A DNA stretch of 39,511 nucleotides from a bacterium (GCA_947481115.1 CANKEI010000002.1:1-39511); one strand, 5' to 3'; positions 2,635-36,869 are shown, counted from the first letter of the stretch. Made by a program: numbers and translations. The notes: generated from the sequence alone by a model not told the origin.

Positions 2635-3615
2635 ATGAGATTAAATAATCTATCTCCCGCTCGTCCCGAGCGCAGTCGAGGGATGTTGTGGGCACAGCTT
2701 TTACTGGCGCTATTATTACTCAGTTCAGATCAAGCAACTAAATTCTGGGCAGTTAAATATTTAGTTAATATTATGCCAGTATTTAATTTTTTAAATTTGA
2801 TCAAGCTCGATTTAGAGCTAGCTTTTAATCAGGGTGTTAGTTGGGGTTTATTTAGCGCGCATAATTTAATGGCACGATTAAGTTTAATAGCGGCAATTTC
2901 AGTTATTTTAATTTATTTGATTTTTTATACTAAGCAGAGATTGCGGGCTGGCAAAACTATTTTAGCTGAAAGCTTAATTATTGCTGGCGCAATTTCTAAT
3001 TTAATTGATCGTTTATATTATGGTGCGGTAATCGATTTCATACACGTTAGTTTTAAATTTAATAATTTAAATTGGGACTTTCCCATTTTTAATTTAGCTG
3101 ATGTGGGAATTTTTATCGGTGTTTGTTGTATGTTATTTAGGGAGTATTATCCTGAAAAAAATAATCTTTTTTGTAAAAATTTAGCTACTTTAGGTGATTT
3201 GGGTAATTGGCAAGCGCCGGGAACTTGGGGAACATTAGCAGCTGTACCAGTGGTGTTTTTAGCTAGGCAATATTGTAATAATTTAATTTATTTAGGTTTA
3301 GTTATTACGGTAATAATTAGTGCGTATTTAATTATTTATAAATCTAGTAATTATTTCCCAGTTTCTGATGATCAAACAATTATCATCGATGAATTTGCAG
3401 GATTCTGGTGTTGTTTTATTATTACCTGCAAATTTAGTTTACTAGTCTTAGTTTTAAATTTTTTAATTTTTAGATTTTTTGATATTTCTAAAATTTGGCC
3501 CGTCAATTTAGCTGAAAAATTACCAGGAGCACTAGGCGTTTTAGCAGATGATCTAGTCGCAGGCTTATTAACAAATCTTAGTTGGGTGATTTGTGTTAAA
3601 TATATTTTCTGCTAA
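2635..3615 (+). CDS. lspA: fusion protein: lipoprotein signal peptidase II (LspA) N-terminal half plus phosphatidylglycerophosphatase A (PgpA) C-terminal half
   Basis: The N-terminal half has LspA motifs (DQATKFWA, FNQGVSWGLF, ISNLIDRLYYGAVIDFI, FNLADVGIFIG). The C-terminal half has PgpA motifs (PGTWGTLAAVPV, IIIDEFAGFW, FRFFDISKIWP, GVLADDLVAGL). The true start may be ATG 2683 (MLWAQLLL..), which lies inside the repeat. Confidence 0.85.
   Translation: MRLNNLSPARPERSRGMLWAQLLLALLLLSSDQATKFWAVKYLVNIMPVFNFLNLIKLDLELAFNQGVSWGLFSAHNLMARLSLIAAISVILIYLIFYTKQRLRAGKTILAESLIIAGAISNLIDRLYYGAVIDFIHVSFKFNNLNWDFPIFNLADVGIFIGVCCMLFREYYPEKNNLFCKNLATLGDLGNWQAPGTWGTLAAVPVVFLARQYCNNLIYLGLVITVIISAYLIIYKSSNYFPVSDDQTIIIDEFAGFWCCFIITCKFSLLVLVLNFLIFRFFDISKIWPVNLAEKLPGALGVLADDLVAGLLTNLSWVICVKYIFC
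2657..2691 (+). repeat. short variant of the GC-rich palindromic repeat family
   Basis: CCGCTCGTCCCGAGCGCAGTCGAGGGATGTTGTGG. It equals the long copy minus an internal 16-nt segment and a shorter G run. It overlaps the 5' end of the lspA-pgpA ORF. Confidence 0.75.
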
Positions 3616-14507: not shown

Positions 14508-14565
14508 GCTCGCAACATCCCCCCCTCGACTGACGCTCGGGGTGAGCGGGGTTCGGGACGAGCGG
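14508..14565 (-). repeat. long copy of the GC-rich palindromic repeat family
   Basis: GCTCGCAACATCCCCCCCTCGACTGACGCTCGGGGTGAGCGGGGTTCGGGACGAGCGG. Its reverse complement is identical over 55 nt to 28944-28998. It sits between convergent genes. Confidence 0.9.
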
Positions 14566-17181: not shown

Positions 17182-17216
17182 CCTCCACATCCCTCGACAA
17201 GCTTCGGGACGAGCGG
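17182..17216 (-). repeat. short variant of the GC-rich palindromic repeat family
   Basis: CCTCCACATCCCTCGACAAGCTTCGGGACGAGCGG. It pairs in inverted orientation with 17281-17329 across a 64-bp AT-rich spacer. Confidence 0.75.
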
Positions 17217-17280
17217 TAATTAGTTTGCTTTTTTATTATAATAAAAATGTTTTACTAAAGCAGAAACAGACAGGTCATCT

Positions 17281-17329
17281 GCCGCTCGTCCCGAGTGTAG
17301 CCTTATGGCGAAGTCGAGGGATGTGGCGG
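17281..17329 (+). repeat. variant copy of the GC-rich palindromic repeat family
   Basis: GCCGCTCGTCCCGAGTGTAGCCTTATGGCGAAGTCGAGGGATGTGGCGG. Both conserved termini are present. Confidence 0.75.
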
Positions 17330-26586: not shown

Positions 26587-27510
26587 TTGGGTCGGGTAGA
26601 AACTGTTAGTAGGTTTAATATGTTAGATTTAAAAAAAAAGTTTCTTAATCAACTGGGCTTCTTTGTAGGAACGCCGGCGATTTTATGGCAACTTTTATTT
26701 TTGTGGATTCCGCTAATTTTTGTATTTTATATTAGCTTTACGCCCGGCGCTACACCCATAATTAATCATTTTACTTACTTAAATTTGACCATTAATAACT
26801 ATTTAGAACTATTAGATTTTACGCATTTAAAAGTAATCTTGCGCTCATTATTTATAGCTAGTATTAATACACTGCTGTGTTTAACTATTGGCTATCCAGT
26901 GGCCTATTACTTAGCATTATATTTAAAAAGACTAAAAAGCTTGGCGCTATTTTTATTAACGTTACCTTTTTGGATTAATTTTTTAGTACACATTTATGCT
27001 TGGTTTTTTATTTTAGAACGGGGCGGATTATTAAATCAGCTTTTAATTTATTTGGGTTTGATCTCTGAGCCATTAACTTTTATTAACAGCCAATTTGCGA
27101 CAGCGCTAGTCATGTTTCATGTTTATTTGCCATTTATGATTATGCCAATTTATACGGTCCTAGAAAAATTTAATAAAACTTTAATCGAGGCTTCATTGGA
27201 TTTAGGGGCGACGCACTGGCAAACTTTTTGGCGGGTGACTATCCCCTTGTCATTTAGTGGTATTCGCACTGGGGCACTATTAGTATTTGTGATGAGTTTT
27301 GGTGAATATGCGATTCCAATTTTAATGGGCGGCAGCAAAACTTTTTATGTGGGTGGTTTAATTACCGAATATTTCTTGATTGCCCGCAATATGCCTAAGG
27401 GGGCTGCTTTCATGGTATTAAGTACACTGGGCTTAGGATTAGCTTTATTATTAATGTTAGGTTTTAACTTGCCAAATAAAACTAAATCTAAAATTTCAGG
27501 GGCGAGTTAA
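26587..27510 (+). CDS. potB: spermidine/putrescine ABC transporter permease
   Basis: Six-TM permease with an EAA-type loop (IEASLDLGATHWQTFWRVTIP). The probable ATG is at 26620. Confidence 0.85.
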   Translation: MGRVETVSRFNMLDLKKKFLNQLGFFVGTPAILWQLLFLWIPLIFVFYISFTPGATPIINHFTYLNLTINNYLELLDFTHLKVILRSLFIASINTLLCLTIGYPVAYYLALYLKRLKSLALFLLTLPFWINFLVHIYAWFFILERGGLLNQLLIYLGLISEPLTFINSQFATALVMFHVYLPFMIMPIYTVLEKFNKTLIEASLDLGATHWQTFWRVTIPLSFSGIRTGALLVFVMSFGEYAIPILMGGSKTFYVGGLITEYFLIARNMPKGAAFMVLSTLGLGLALLLMLGFNLPNKTKSKISGAS

Positions 27511-27514
27511 GCTT

Positions 27515-28279
27515 ATGCGAATCTCTAATCGCTTAATTTTGCCATTAATCGCGCTAGCCGTGTACAGTTTTTTATATTTACCAATTATTGTGCTAGTAAT
27601 TTTTTCGTTTAATAATTCTAATATCTTATCTTATTATTGGTCCGGCTTTACTTTAGATGCTTATGTTAAAGTTTTTCATAATCCGGAATTATTAGTCGCA
27701 TTAAAAAATTCTTTAATTGTAGCTACCAGTTCAGTTTTGCTAAGTGTCACCATGGGAGTATTACTAGTCTGGGGTTTATTTCAACAAGTTGGTCGTTGGT
27801 TTTCCGCTTTTTATATTACGGTCATGGTCCCAGAAGTAATTATTGCGGTAGGTTTACTAGGCTTATTCACACTACTTAATTTACCACTGGGGTTTCTCAG
27901 TTTAATTATTGGGCATACACTCATAGGACTAGGTTTTGTGATCCCCCTGATTTATGGCCGCATGCGTGAATTGGATTATCGTTTAATTGAAGCTTCATTA
28001 GATTTGGGGGCTACCAAATGGCAAACTTTTAAATTTGTAATTTTGCCGTTATTAGCACCAGCGATTATTTCAGCTAGTTTATTGGTATTTATTATTTCGC
28101 TCGATGATTTTTTAATTTCGTTTTTTTGTGCTGGGGCCGCTTCACAGACCTTGTCACTTTACATTTTCTCGATGATCAGGGCTGGTATTTCGCCAGAGAT
28201 TAATGCGCTATCAACGCTCATGTTATTAGTTAGCACAATTTTAGTGAGCGCTTTTTCAATTTTGGGTAATAAAGAATAA
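27515..28279 (+). CDS. potC: spermidine/putrescine ABC transporter permease
   Basis: Permease with an EAA loop (IEASLDLGATKWQTFKFVILP). Directly follows potB. Confidence 0.85.
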   Translation: MRISNRLILPLIALAVYSFLYLPIIVLVIFSFNNSNILSYYWSGFTLDAYVKVFHNPELLVALKNSLIVATSSVLLSVTMGVLLVWGLFQQVGRWFSAFYITVMVPEVIIAVGLLGLFTLLNLPLGFLSLIIGHTLIGLGFVIPLIYGRMRELDYRLIEASLDLGATKWQTFKFVILPLLAPAIISASLLVFIISLDDFLISFFCAGAASQTLSLYIFSMIRAGISPEINALSTLMLLVSTILVSAFSILGNKE

Positions 28280-28327: not shown

Positions 28328-29566
28328 GTGTTTAAATATTTAATTCGTTTAGCCAGTATTTGTTTTTGGCTAGTTATAATTTTAGGTAGTTTGTATACCG
28401 CTAATTATTTAACGCAAAATATTTCTGAACCTAAAGCGATTAATATTTTCACCTGGGTTGACATGATCAATCGCGAGAGTGTTAGTGAATTTGAGCAGCA
28501 AACTGGTATCAAAGTTAATTTAAGTTATTTCAGTAACGCCGAAGAATTATTAACTAAGTTACGTTTAACTAATAGTCAAGATTACGATTTAATTGTCACC
28601 AATGATTATGCTATCGAGTCTTTAATTAAACATGATCTAGTGCAAAAAATTGATCATACTAAATTAAATTTTTGGTCACAAATTGATCCAAATTTATTAA
28701 ATTTTTATTATGATCCGAAAAACTTATACTCGATCCCGTTCTATTGGGATATTTATGGGCTGGGTTATGTTACAGAAAATTTAGGCCAAAAGCATCACCA
28801 ACAAAATTTACAGAATTTAATTTCGGATAATCACACACCAGCTTTAAAAGTTAAATTAAATACTGGAAATATACTAGATACCCCAGAGCTTAGTTGGGGC
28901 TTAGTATTTAATTCAGCACATAATTCACAAAATAATCTTTCTACCGCTCGTCCCGAACCCCGCTCACCCCGAGCGTCAGTCGAGGGGGGGATGTTGCGGG
29001 TACCTAATTCACAAATTGCTATGTTAGACAATGGCTTAGAGGCGGTACTGTGTGCCGGACAATATTTATTTGGTTCATCTGATAGTTTGCAACCAGCGCA
29101 ATTGCCGAAAATTCGTACATTATTAATTCAACAGAAAAATTTTATCACAGCCTATACTGACGAAAAAGCAGGCTTTTTACTAGCTGCTGGTGACGTACAG
29201 TTAGCAGTCACGCAAAGTGCTTTTATTCATCGTGTGATCAAACGACAGCCGGAGATTAAATTTGGGATCCCTAAAGAAGGGGGCTTTATGGTAGTTGATG
29301 CGTTTGTGATTTCCAAATATAGTACTAAACTTGACTGGGTCTATAAATTTTTAAATTTTATTTATCAGCCTAAATTTATTGATCAAACTGTGACTCAATT
29401 TGCTTATCTACCAGTTTTGACTAGCAGTTTACAACAAGCAGATTTAAATTATCTGGGTGGCTTTGATAAGTTGTTTAAGCAAGATTTTAAAAAGTTACAA
29501 TTTTTTAAGCGCAATTTACCATTACAAGAAGTAAATAAAATTTGGGTTGATGTTAAAGCTGCATAA
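28328..29566 (+). CDS. potD: polyamine-type extracellular solute-binding protein carrying a repeat-derived insertion
   Basis: Operon position after potABC, an N-terminal anchor, and a PotD/PotF-like N-terminal half (INIFTWVDMI..). The insert ..ARPEPRSPRASVEGGMLR.. is encoded by the repeat. Confidence 0.75.
   Translation: MFKYLIRLASICFWLVIILGSLYTANYLTQNISEPKAINIFTWVDMINRESVSEFEQQTGIKVNLSYFSNAEELLTKLRLTNSQDYDLIVTNDYAIESLIKHDLVQKIDHTKLNFWSQIDPNLLNFYYDPKNLYSIPFYWDIYGLGYVTENLGQKHHQQNLQNLISDNHTPALKVKLNTGNILDTPELSWGLVFNSAHNSQNNLSTARPEPRSPRASVEGGMLRVPNSQIAMLDNGLEAVLCAGQYLFGSSDSLQPAQLPKIRTLLIQQKNFITAYTDEKAGFLLAAGDVQLAVTQSAFIHRVIKRQPEIKFGIPKEGGFMVVDAFVISKYSTKLDWVYKFLNFIYQPKFIDQTVTQFAYLPVLTSSLQQADLNYLGGFDKLFKQDFKKLQFFKRNLPLQEVNKIWVDVKAA
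28944..28998 (+). repeat. long copy of the GC-rich palindromic repeat family, in-frame inside potD
   Basis: CCGCTCGTCCCGAACCCCGCTCACCCCGAGCGTCAGTCGAGGGGGGGATGTTGCG. Identical over 55 nt to the reverse complement of 14508-14565. Confidence 0.9.
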
Positions 29567-29592: not shown

Positions 29593-31743
29593 ATGTCAGA
29601 AGAAAATAAGTTTCAGTCGCAAAAATTTTATGTCACCACGCCGATCTATTATCCGACGGCTAAGCCACACCTAGGTTCATTATATTCGACGTTACTAGCT
29701 GACGTAGCTGCGCGTTGGCATAAATTGTTAGGTGCCCAAGTTTTTTTCTTAACTGGCACCGATGAACATGGTCAGAAGATTGCCCAAGCTGCCGAAAAAG
29801 CCGGAGTTGCGCCTCAAACATTTGTAGATAATCTAGTTGGTGAATATACCAGTATGTGGCATAAATATGAGCTGGCTTATGATAAATTTATTCGTACAAC
29901 AGATCCAGAGCATGTGCAAGCTGTGCAACTGTGGTTACAAAAATTAATCGATCGCGATCTAATTTATAAAGCTAATTACGAAGGGTATTATTGTACCCCC
30001 TGCGAAACTTTTATTACCGAAACTGCTGTGCGCGAGCAAGATCTAGCAGTAATTTTATGCACAGCATGTCAACGTCCAACCAGTTATTTAACTGAAGAAA
30101 ATTATTTTTTCAGATTAGCTAAATATCAGGACCAGTTATTAAATTTTTATGCGCAAAACCCCAATTTTATTGTACCAAAAGAGCGTCTCAATGAAGTTAT
30201 AAAATTTGTCGAATCTGGCTTAAGAGACTTATGTTTATCGCGTAGTACAGTCACTTGGGGTATAAAATTTCCGGGCGACAGTAAACATGTCACTTATGTC
30301 TGGGCCGACGCACTAAATAATTATATCTCTGGTGTAGGCTACGGTAATCCCCATAAAACAGTCGAATTTAATTTTTGGTGGCCCGCTGATTTGCATGTGA
30401 TGGGCAAAGATATTGTACGATTCCATGCGGTTTATTGGCCTGCATTTTTATTAGCTAGCGATTTGCCATTACCCAAGCAACTATTAGTCCATGGTTGGCT
30501 GAAAATCAACGATCAGAAAATGTCTAAGTCATTAGGTAATGCCGTTGACCCGGAAGAGTTATTAAAAACTTATGGTGCTGATCCAGTGCGCTATTATTTA
30601 GTTAGCCAAATGGCGATTACGCGCGACTCTGAGTTTAGCATTTTAGATTTAGAGCAGAAAATATCTAGTGATTTAGCGAACGATTTAGGAAACTTATTAA
30701 ATCGCACGGTACAGTTAGCAGCACAAAATAACTGTCTTAATTTGCCAGTAATTACTAATTGGTCTGAGAGTTCGCAAAAATTAAAACTTAGCGCACTAAC
30801 AATACTAGATAATTATGCCCAGTATATGCACGATAATTGTGCTTATTTAGCGTTAGCTGAACTTTGGAAATTAATTAAATTAACTAATGCTTTTTTTCAT
30901 GAACAAGCACCTTGGGTATTAGCTAAAACTGATAGTGTAAAATTTATCGAAGTTTTATCAGCAGTTTGTCACATCTTGCGTGCCATAGCGATCTTAAGTT
31001 GGCCCGTTTTGCCAAGCAAGTCACACGCACTATTACAACGCTTAGGCCAAAACAATTTAGCACTAAATTTAGCAGATATACATAACTTACTCCCGCTCGC
31101 CCCACAACCCGCTCATCTCGAGTGGAGCGTAGCGCAGTCGAGGGAGGGATGTGGCGAGCACAAACGTACTGTAGTTTCTAAAAATTTAATTCTCGAGTTA
31201 AAAAATAACCACTGGGATTTAGATTTTAATTTACAAGCTGGCGAGCCATTGTTTACGCGTTACGATCAAGTGAAAACTTTTATTAACCCGCTCACCCCGA
31301 GTGAAATTGAGGGGCGTTTAGGGTTAAGTAAAAAAAATAACTCAGAAAATAAAAAAGTTATCGAAAAAACCATTATGTCCACTGAAAATATTAATCAAGA
31401 AAATTTAATACCAAATTATATTACCATCGAAGAGTTAACTAAAGTTGAATTAGTAGTTGGCACAATTATTGCTTGTGATCCCATCGAAAAATCTGACAAG
31501 CTTTATAAGCTACAAGTTGATTGTGGTACTTACGGCGTCCGCCAAATTTTATCTGGTATAAAACAACATTTTGCGCCAGCAGATCTATTAAATCGGCAAG
31601 CGCTATTTGTCTTAAATTTGAAGCCTAGATTAATGCTAGGTTTAGAATCTCAGGGCATGATGTTATTAGCTAAAGACGCGGTCGGTAATTTACAAAGCAT
31701 GGCGCCGCTAGGAATTGTCCCTAATGGCACTAGATTGTCATAA
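29593..31743 (+). CDS. metG: methionine--tRNA ligase with a C-terminal tRNA-binding (EMAP/Trbp111-like) domain
   Basis: YYPTAKPHLGSLYS (HIGH-like), KMSKSLGN, zinc-knuckle Cys pairs, and a C-terminal VELVVGTI..KLYKLQVDCG domain. Repeat-derived inserts lie in the linker. Confidence 0.92.
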   Translation: MSEENKFQSQKFYVTTPIYYPTAKPHLGSLYSTLLADVAARWHKLLGAQVFFLTGTDEHGQKIAQAAEKAGVAPQTFVDNLVGEYTSMWHKYELAYDKFIRTTDPEHVQAVQLWLQKLIDRDLIYKANYEGYYCTPCETFITETAVREQDLAVILCTACQRPTSYLTEENYFFRLAKYQDQLLNFYAQNPNFIVPKERLNEVIKFVESGLRDLCLSRSTVTWGIKFPGDSKHVTYVWADALNNYISGVGYGNPHKTVEFNFWWPADLHVMGKDIVRFHAVYWPAFLLASDLPLPKQLLVHGWLKINDQKMSKSLGNAVDPEELLKTYGADPVRYYLVSQMAITRDSEFSILDLEQKISSDLANDLGNLLNRTVQLAAQNNCLNLPVITNWSESSQKLKLSALTILDNYAQYMHDNCAYLALAELWKLIKLTNAFFHEQAPWVLAKTDSVKFIEVLSAVCHILRAIAILSWPVLPSKSHALLQRLGQNNLALNLADIHNLLPLAPQPAHLEWSVAQSREGCGEHKRTVVSKNLILELKNNHWDLDFNLQAGEPLFTRYDQVKTFINPLTPSEIEGRLGLSKKNNSENKKVIEKTIMSTENINQENLIPNYITIEELTKVELVVGTIIACDPIEKSDKLYKLQVDCGTYGVRQILSGIKQHFAPADLLNRQALFVLNLKPRLMLGLESQGMMLLAKDAVGNLQSMAPLGIVPNGTRLS
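31093..31159 (+). repeat. diverged long copy of the GC-rich palindromic repeat family, in-frame inside metG
   Basis: CCGCTCGCCCCACAACCCGCTCATCTCGAGTGGAGCGTAGCGCAGTCGAGGGAGGGATGTGGCGAGC. Both termini are conserved. Confidence 0.7.
31287..31316 (+). repeat. possible core fragment of the repeat family inside metG
   Basis: CCCGCTCACCCCGAG matches 15 nt of the long-copy core and is followed by ..TGAGGGG. Confidence 0.35.
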
Positions 31744-36193: not shown

Positions 36194-36676
36194 AAAATAA
36201 TTTAAGCTGTAGCTCTATTTCTACTAAATTATAAGTTTAAAATATTATTTTTTATAACTATTTAACTATATTAATTCATAATTACAGGTTAATGGATTGG
36301 TTAAGTGAAAAGCAAGAGTTTAGTTTTTTTGGAATAAATATTTAAAACAGGGTTTAATTTTATATATAAACCGTTGCTTTTTTGTGGGTGAGTAGTCTAC
36401 TCTGAGGAAGAGGGTAGAATATTTGTGGTGGTTATGTTTATAAAGTCGCTCTACTTCACTAAAGTTTCGTAGGGCTGCGGTGAGCCGCGGGAGGTTATGA
36501 TGACGCAATTTGTAATAATTTTATGCATGCTATTATCTGCTGGATTTACAGTAAGTCTATGCAATTTAGGGCTTAAATAGTAGTTCCAGGCAGGTTTATT
36601 AAACTATGTATTGGTTTAATGCTATGCTTACAGGCAGTCTATATTAATAGACTTCTTCCGTAATTCACAGTTTCTA

Positions 36677-36735
36677 CTCGCTACATCCCCCCCCTCGACT
36701 GACGCTCGGGGTGAGCGGGGTTCGGGACGAGCGGG
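36677..36735 (-). repeat. long copy of the GC-rich palindromic repeat family
   Basis: CTCGCTACATCCCCCCCCTCGACTGACGCTCGGGGTGAGCGGGGTTCGGGACGAGCGGG. Differs from the 14508 copy by one extra C in the homopolymer run and one substitution. Confidence 0.9.
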
Positions 36736-36869
36736 AAAAAATTTTATTTCAAGATAGTTACGGAAGAGCTCTATTATGCAAATCCAGAAGCTTAAAAAAT
36801 CTTAATCTCGCTTAATTTTATTAGTAATTTTTCTAGCAGCTACTTTTTAATACTTGGCTTTATGAGTGC

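Follow-up and report, generated by a model that had tools for sequence, protein, structure and literature searches.

A CGTC-tagged palindromic repeat probably inserted in frame into a potD-family gene of a Babeliales bacterium

How can a GC-rich, hairpin-forming piece of DNA come to lie inside a gene under strong selection and leave its reading frame unbroken? The question is raised by a contig of 39,511 nucleotides (nt) from a bacterium of the Dependentiae/Babeliales (GCA_947481115.1, CANKEI010000002.1:1-39511), referred to here at its full length as the window, in which the last gene of a potABCD-like operon, a potD-family gene for a polyamine-binding protein of 412 amino acids (aa) (28328-29566, plus strand), contains a copy of a dispersed repeat. 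The window is AT-rich, with 32-44% G+C per kb, and the 56-nt block at 28944-28999 reaches about 73%. This core, CCGCTCGTCCCGAACCCCGCTCACCCCGAGCGTCAGTCGAGGGGGGGATGTTGCGG, located on the plus strand, represents the long form of the repeat; it bears a CGTC tag and makes a nested, imperfect hairpin. The single long open reading frame (ORF) of the region is 28328-29566, and in its frame the core has no stop codon and reads T-ARPEPRSPRASVEGGMLR-V (peptide given as TARPEPRSPRASVEGGMLR). Hence the element lies, as the first-pass annotation had described it, within an unbroken solute-binding ORF; the start proposed there, 28944, is retained, and the end is displaced by one base, from 28998 to 28999, where the conserved GCGG finishes.

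The limits of the insertion were fixed by a codon-level comparison with three relatives, L025, L026 and L001, the last being a metagenome-assembled genome (MAG) of the same genus. In the window, GCA is followed by CAT AAT TCA CAA, then by the gained sequence (AAT AAT CTT TCT A, the core, and GTA CCT AAT TCA CAA) and by ATT GCT, whereas L025 presents an empty site, GCA CAA AAT TCT CAA ATT GCG, and L026 and L001 are likewise empty. Through the insertion the gene has grown by 84 nt, which make 28 codons (residues 202-229), and the frame is therefore kept. The gain consists of a 75-nt block (13 + 56 + 6) and a 9-nt duplication. The 13 nt are an AT-rich left arm, AATAATCTTTCTA (28931-28943, plus strand), brought in with the element, and similar arms are found 5' of other copies of the repeat, for example at 2644-2656; the 6 nt are a right arm, GTACCT (29000-29005, plus strand), and a GYAC motif occurs 3' of many copies. 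The duplicated 9-mer, AATTCACAA, flanks the insert on the plus strand at 28922-28930 and 29006-29014 and appears once at the L025 site, as AAT TCT CAA; in a direct-repeat scan the repeat around the insert extends to 11 nt, with its left copy at 28921-28931. Since the 9-mer is single at the empty site, its doubling is a target-site duplication, and the empty site in L025 shows a lineage-specific insertion and not a loss in the relatives.

The wider distribution of the segment agrees with a gain. Residues 202-229 are absent in P0001, P0002 and P0003 (88, 92 and 80% identity over aligned residues; P0003 comes from L001), and the 42 homologs in the protein database are all of 322-372 aa, none reaching the 412 aa found here. 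In 38 of 41 Babeliales genomes the PotD match splits into two pieces, residues ~1-155 and ~227-412. Thus, three close and about 40 distant homologs, the latter of 350-372 aa, have no homologous segment at the position where the first-pass annotation had proposed an insertion. That annotation had also spoken of a single longer Asn/Gln-rich insertion; the extra sequence is indeed there, but it is made of two separate parts, the 28-codon insert and a hypervariable loop at residues ~156-186 (28793-28890). The loop is free of the repeat, exceeds that of most homologs by about 30 residues and is partly common to P0002 only.

Could the segment instead be ancestral and deleted in the relatives, or could the assembly have joined a repeat to potD artificially? 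Short-read assemblies do break at the repeat, and Logan contigs end inside it, which gives the second possibility some ground. The comparison of Logan contigs from eight runs over 28700-29200, in which minority variants are hidden, showed, however, that in X1 and X3 contigs reach into the core from the left as well as from the right without differences, and that those of X6 and X12, from other studies, do so with a few single-nucleotide polymorphisms (SNPs); within the core, the contigs of the two sides overlap and agree completely or nearly so. Moreover, a 151-nt piece from X10 spans 28914-29064 without gaps, crossing the whole element, with seven G, into unique sequence on both sides; the insert is therefore present and gapless in contigs of X1, X3, X6, X12 and X10. 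An ancestral segment is in turn contradicted by the 9-nt duplication, which is a signature of gain, and both versions by some 40 homologs in Babeliales and beyond that are without the segment. We regard an ancestral segment or an assembly artefact as exceedingly improbable.

Taken together, it is likely that one member of a dispersed family of GC-rich repeats, which are imperfect palindromes, CGTC-tagged and similar to repetitive extragenic palindromic (REP) sequences and to Rickettsia palindromic elements (RPEs), was inserted into potD in the lineage of this species, is read through and is tolerated. We propose that the insertion may have been accomplished by a staggered break followed by fill-in, or by a microhomology-primed copy from another locus, for which a multicopy single-domain GIY-YIG nuclease would be the candidate enzyme. 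The stop-free core would then simply be read through, adding a Pro/Arg/Gly-rich peptide; inspection shows no stop codon in five of the six frames of the long core, and a copy arriving in a gene could for this reason be translated as it stands. PotD would tolerate the insert, which would be neutral or slightly deleterious and would drift while the gene stays constrained. Its survival would reflect a filter of selection and not a function, in that only in-frame, stop-free insertions into loops would persist within genes.

Several points weigh against this interpretation. The time of insertion is loosely bounded, the nearest empty site being at a synonymous divergence (dS) of ~0.85, and near-identity to other copies could derive partly from constraint on the element or from gene conversion; the insertion is recent, as the first-pass annotation called it, in relative terms only, since it is common to strains ~1.4% apart. 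The read-through is deduced from the reading frame. The placement of the insert in a loop comes from a predicted model, and a low predicted local distance difference test (pLDDT) score is no proof of exposure; in the same model the insert would end ~5 residues before the strand leading to ligand-site positions, and an effect on binding is possible. As for the repeat family as a whole, of 60 copies, 14 are flanked by direct repeats of at least 7 nt, where controls with mismatched flanks give 10.6 (P = 0.145), and direct repeats of at least 9 nt flank 3 copies against 0.88 expected (P = 0.07), by which a family-wide rule of target duplication is not established. The apparent duplications also vary in length (9-11, 9, 7 and ~3 nt, or absent), as do the AT-rich arms, which argues against a transposase of fixed stagger.

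The core carries a homopolymer of seven G (G7) within the reading frame (28984-28990, plus strand). The first-pass annotation had noted that the run differs in length between copies and that slippage at this point would frameshift potD. The first statement is borne out, with G6 in two long-form copies, G7 in seven, G8 in two, among them the one at 36678-36734, and G9 in one; the second is correct as arithmetic, but no change of length at the potD locus is seen in any contig. Neither variants of the G run at this locus nor empty-site alleles appear in the contigs of the eight runs, and the contig records with an additional G map to other copies of the repeat. One could imagine that G7 makes potD a phase-variable contingency gene, in which slippage to G6 or G8 would switch the gene off and reversion would switch it on, as the position of the tract inside the frame and its variation from G6 to G9 among copies would allow. 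Nevertheless, the tract was already part of the repeat when it entered potD and did not develop there, on/off control would hardly be expected for the binding protein of an ABC importer in a reduced genome, and one intragenic long-form copy (C6:12363) has an interrupted run, GTGGGGG. In every contig that covers the element in potD, with at least four studies represented, the run has seven G and the frame is intact, an absence of evidence only. Phase variation of potD is accordingly very unlikely in our opinion; it is plausible that the tract is a mutational hazard, and nothing shows that it acts as a switch.

Variation among the strains sampled touches the insert in a way that agrees with an unconstrained loop in a constrained gene, although the numbers are tiny: two SNPs of one strain fall in the inserted block and both are non-synonymous (A207T and P226H), whereas outside the block four of the five SNPs of that strain are synonymous. 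At 28705-28776, the X1, X3 and X12 runs yield a second type of contig, with nine differences, that continues as L001-type sequence; the same lake samples thus contain also a sister species whose potD is without the insert.

Where the insert lies in the protein was approached with an AlphaFold2 run on a 43-sequence alignment, which gave a model with a mean pLDDT of 87.5 and a predicted template-modelling (TM) score of 0.82. Residues 203-212 and 215-226 are predicted as coil with pLDDT below 50, between a helix (196-203) and a strand (230-232). In the profile alignment, I230-E238 of the window protein stand opposite L163-E171 of Escherichia coli PotD, so that N235 and E238 occupy the positions of D168 and E171. 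The latter two are reported to contact spermidine (Sugiyama et al. 1996). The insert would consequently form a disordered loop close to the binding cleft, just N-terminal to the strand that leads toward the ligand-site positions, and the addition of a Pro/Arg-rich loop, anticipated by the first-pass annotation, finds support in this low-pLDDT prediction.

Such a location suggests a further possibility, exaptation, whereby the Pro/Arg-rich loop would confer on PotD a new property, such as contact with the host or a partner or an altered gating, and would be kept by selection. The insert is in fact kept in all strains sampled, it adjoins the strand leading to the ligand site, and the same peptide frame (ARPE...GMLR) is used in at least four other proteins. 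Yet the two strain SNPs in the block alter amino acids, in other proteins the element is also read in different frames or in reverse orientation, to give unrelated peptides, the loop is predicted to be disordered, and no ortholog has anything at this site. For these reasons we consider exaptation quite improbable, and prefer a tolerated insertion of a mobile repeat.

The identity of the host gene is well established. The ORF matches the Pfam family SBP_bac_8 at 1e-20, its best NCBIfam matches are PotD and PotF, and a profile of the 43-sequence family recovers the E. coli PotD structures 1POT (2.5e-69) and 8Y5H (2.4e-70). With the predicted product as query, the top Foldseek matches were PotF and PotD, with a TM-score of 0.84 normalized to target length. 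Profile and Foldseek results together place the protein in the PotD/PotF group, with a type II periplasmic binding fold. Two BPD_transp_1-type ORFs (26587-27510 and 27515-28279) lie directly 5' of potD, as expected for an operon of this kind, and metG lies 3' of it; the order permeases-potD-metG is found also in L025 and L026, there with a gene for an ABC ATPase. The ratio of non-synonymous to synonymous substitution in potD against L025, L026 and L001 is 0.053, 0.066 and 0.139, respectively, at dS of 0.85-1.0, and the whole gene is under strong purifying selection. In G001, a genome of the same genus that is 96% complete, no match to potD was found, which suggests that the pot operon is dispensable in this close relative or was missed in its assembly.

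The element in potD belongs to a family that is abundant in the window and in the genome. A search of the window with a 42-nt core pattern gives exactly three hits (28944 on the plus strand, 14524 and 36693 on the minus strand), none being expected from 100 shuffles. The second, an intergenic long-form copy with G7 located between convergent ORFs (14510-14565, minus strand), is identical to the potD core save for the last base; the copy reported before at 14508-14565 is hence noncoding, as stated, and its identity falls short by that base. The third, also of the long form and intergenic, has G8 (36678-36734, minus strand) and is part of a longer composite repeat 3' of a gene for a protein of 830 aa. 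A diverged copy is placed in frame in metG (31109-31157, plus strand), and short forms are represented by a 35-nt copy at 2657-2691 (plus strand), which is paired head-to-head with a partial copy at 2508-2530, and by a head-to-head doublet at 17182-17329, formed by the copies 17182-17216 (minus) and 17282-17329 (plus).

In the genome as assembled (G000; 882 kb in 70 contigs, only 75% complete) there are ~75 loci of the repeat. The basic form, of 35 nt, is CCGCTCGTCCCGA-N6-TCGAGGGATGTTGCGR. In longer forms the loop is replaced by nested hairpins with compensatory changes, for example GCCC-TTA-GGGC against ACCC-TTA-GGGT, and in the long form present in potD part of the left arm is duplicated. 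Doublets are oriented head-to-head in nine cases and head-to-tail in one, none being tail-to-tail. The fold energy of the repeat is unexceptional with respect to shuffles (z from -0.1 to -1.8), and the case for a palindrome rests therefore on the conservation of the family and on the compensatory inner hairpins. The arms, CGCTC(G/A)TCCCGA...TCGAGGG, are kept across several Babeliales families, patchily, in 12 of 41 genomes, and the inner hairpins are wholly different among relatives (G029, G001, G028, G040, G020 and G033); G029 has 39 copies with AT-rich inner stems of 15-30 nt. A scan of 28850-29100 with Rfam gave no match.

Many cores are embedded in a composite repeat, arranged as TCCGTAACTATCTTGAAATAAAATTTTTTC, an optional CGCTCCAGGCGTCGCCAGAGGCTATGCCGGAC, the core and GTAGAAACTGTGAATTACGGAAGAAGTCTA, with an outer TCCGTAA/TTACGGA pairing, that is located 3' of unrelated genes (window 36640-36770, and C3:374, C3:22788, C9:1785, C9:20964, C12:3875, C19:1083 and C30:12337 of G000). 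The flank GAGGCTATGCCGGAC was considered as a gene end and rejected: the upstream ORFs are unrelated, and the flank is therefore part of the longer composite repeat.

Are these repeats then a new system, or do they repeat a behaviour already described? In the accounts of the RPEs given in PMC10969869 and PMC3733652 (Ogata et al. 2000/2002), palindromic repeats are found in frame within Rickettsia genes, and are thought to fall in loops. The resemblance is close, in that dispersed palindromic repeats in a reduced, AT-rich parasite genome have many copies in frame in unrelated housekeeping genes, where they are read as an extra peptide. The repeats studied here differ in belonging to another phylum, Dependentiae/Babeliales, in having cores of 35-86 nt as opposed to ~100-150 nt for RPE-1 (~150 nt in PMC10969869), in occurring in several frames and both orientations, and in the target-site duplication documented for the potD copy. 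The insertion is thus RPE-like behaviour in Babeliales, a known type of event and not a new system. In-frame palindromic repeats are best known from Rickettsia and Wolbachia, with scattered cases of REPs, and searches of the literature turned up no relevant report from Dependentiae or Babeliales; the potD case extends the phenomenon to these bacteria, a further lineage of parasites with reduced genomes. It supports the view that reduced AT-rich genomes with GC-rich, stop-free hairpin repeats recurrently gain protein loops from selfish DNA. The case is unusually clean, with exact limits, a verified target duplication, an empty site and a well-modelled fold.

In structure, the repeat most resembles the CGTC-tagged REPs, a group that includes dRS3 of Neisseria and RPE-4 and RPE-6 of Rickettsia (Di Nocera et al. 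2013, PMC3733652). An unpaired CGTC is positioned just 5' of the hairpin (CCGCT-CGTC-CCGA..., consensus CCGCTCGTCCCGA), the units are mostly head-to-head dimers without a dedicated tyrosine transposase in the genome or its genus, some are intragenic, many of these in replication and repair genes (MutS, Fpg, ligase), and intergenic copies lie 3' of genes. The geometry departs from that of the four published families, whose stem has 8-9 bp starting from A-T pairs, with a loop of 4-5 nt and a CCA-like tail of 3 nt (PMC3733652): here the inner stem, CCCGA/TCGAGGG, is of ~5-6 bp and bulged, the tail is ATGTTGCGG, nested hairpins of up to ~50 nt may take the place of a loop that otherwise has 6 nt, and the unit also has an additional outer CCGC/GCGG pairing and AT-rich arms. 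CGTC repeats of Neisseria and Wolbachia have been described as the recognition motifs (SRM/NTS) of Ssn, a single-domain GIY-YIG nuclease acting on single-stranded DNA (Chenal et al. 2025, PMC11893778). CGTC-type hairpin repeats are abundant in symbiont genomes and single-domain GIY-YIG genes are present here too; membership of the SRM group proper was rejected, as the published pattern HGTCWYN(0-2)YYVSBRHN(0-5)WNVSBRGN(0-2)RNCYNB has 0 matches in 882 kb and 0-2 in shuffles.

Like the REPs and REPINs mobilized by RAYT transposases, the family is made of short palindromes that frequently form inverted pairs, and it differs from them by a CGTC tag in place of GTAG. A RAYT partner was rejected: Y1_Tnp (PF01797), the only parent insertion-sequence family looked for, has no match in this genome (G000) or in its genus and family relatives (G001-G007). 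In yeast mitochondrial DNA the optional GC clusters, for instance in var1, are likewise GC-rich palindromic mobile units in a very AT-rich genome, which can be in frame and are flanked by a short duplicated AT-rich target; they belong to a eukaryotic organelle, and their sequence and machinery are unrelated to those of the potD repeat.

To our knowledge, neither a mobilizing enzyme nor an insertion signature has been established for CGTC-type REPs, and the potD locus may serve as a test case for their insertion, as well as for the tolerance of a binding protein to 28 extra residues near its ligand site. One feature of the family is polar. Long tandem duplications (period of at least 12 nt and length of at least 40 nt) adjoin the CGTC, or left, end in five of the 60 copies (0.28 expected) and the right end in none of them; a looser test with Tandem Repeats Finder, counting any tandem repeat within 40 nt, gave 10 against 5.3, which is not significant. 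The duplications suggest polar instability, or repeated events, at the CGTC end. They are in frame, in intragenic copies, with 2-8 units of 15-30 nt (C6:16966-17085, C19:583-675, C21:5092-5204, C3:17680-17725 and C11:14406-14459), and their products include NSPDD x7 in MutS, DFQTVGPIQ x3 in Fpg and KKVSLFCGSV x3 in a glycosyltransferase.

The candidate enzyme is represented by four genes or remnants for single-domain GIY-YIG proteins of 80-100 aa (C9:2012-2251, C58:278-517, C58:2760-2894 and C11:2928-3167), one with an internal TGA. The proteins have no match in NCBIfam, and their nearest entries in the Protein Data Bank are SLX1. At one of the four loci, C9:2012-2251, a composite copy of the repeat is found ~170 nt upstream and none downstream, an arrangement compatible with chance. 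Among the 41 Babeliales genomes, GIY-YIG genes are present in 9 of 11 with repeats and in ~16 of 30 others, a loose link. Relatives carry up to six copies, several with stops, and the gene itself therefore looks mobile or decaying. It is possible, though doubtful, that the 9-11-nt duplication, the variable AT arms and the left-end duplications are together the traces of a polar break-and-fill or template-switch insertion of a CGTC-type REP, possibly started by a hairpin-specific nuclease, such as the GIY-YIG proteins, and not by a transposase.

The insertion in potD is one of many of its kind, since 18 ORFs of 250 aa or more together contain 20 of the 75 copies, with both orientations and all phases represented. 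That about a quarter of the copies are genic in a gene-dense genome fits with purifying selection against most insertions into genes. According to Pfam the hosts include MutS, Fpg, an ATP-dependent DNA ligase, a penicillin-binding protein transpeptidase, a secretin, an ABC ATPase, a flavoprotein oxidoreductase and a glycosyltransferase, to which the methionyl-tRNA synthetase (MetRS) encoded by metG within the window is added. In metG, mutS, fpg and an NlpC/P60-like gene the inserts have no counterpart in orthologs of the same genus, and the family thus combines, as do RPEs, dispersal, preservation of the frame in ORFs and absence from orthologs; in the last three genes the empty sites are too diverged for the limits of the inserts to be fixed. 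As regards annotation, such inserts explain orthologs that appear too long and contig breaks in Babeliales MAGs.

MetRS itself has 716 aa, against 657-660 aa in relatives, owing to two element-derived inserts in a linker (window 31075-31170 and 31285-31325). The diverged copy of the repeat in metG forms part of an insert of 32 codons that is absent in L025, L026 and L001. At the second site L025 and L001 have no insert, whereas L026 has a shorter one, also derived from the element (NPLAPSRVEG), and this second insert is therefore older or independent.

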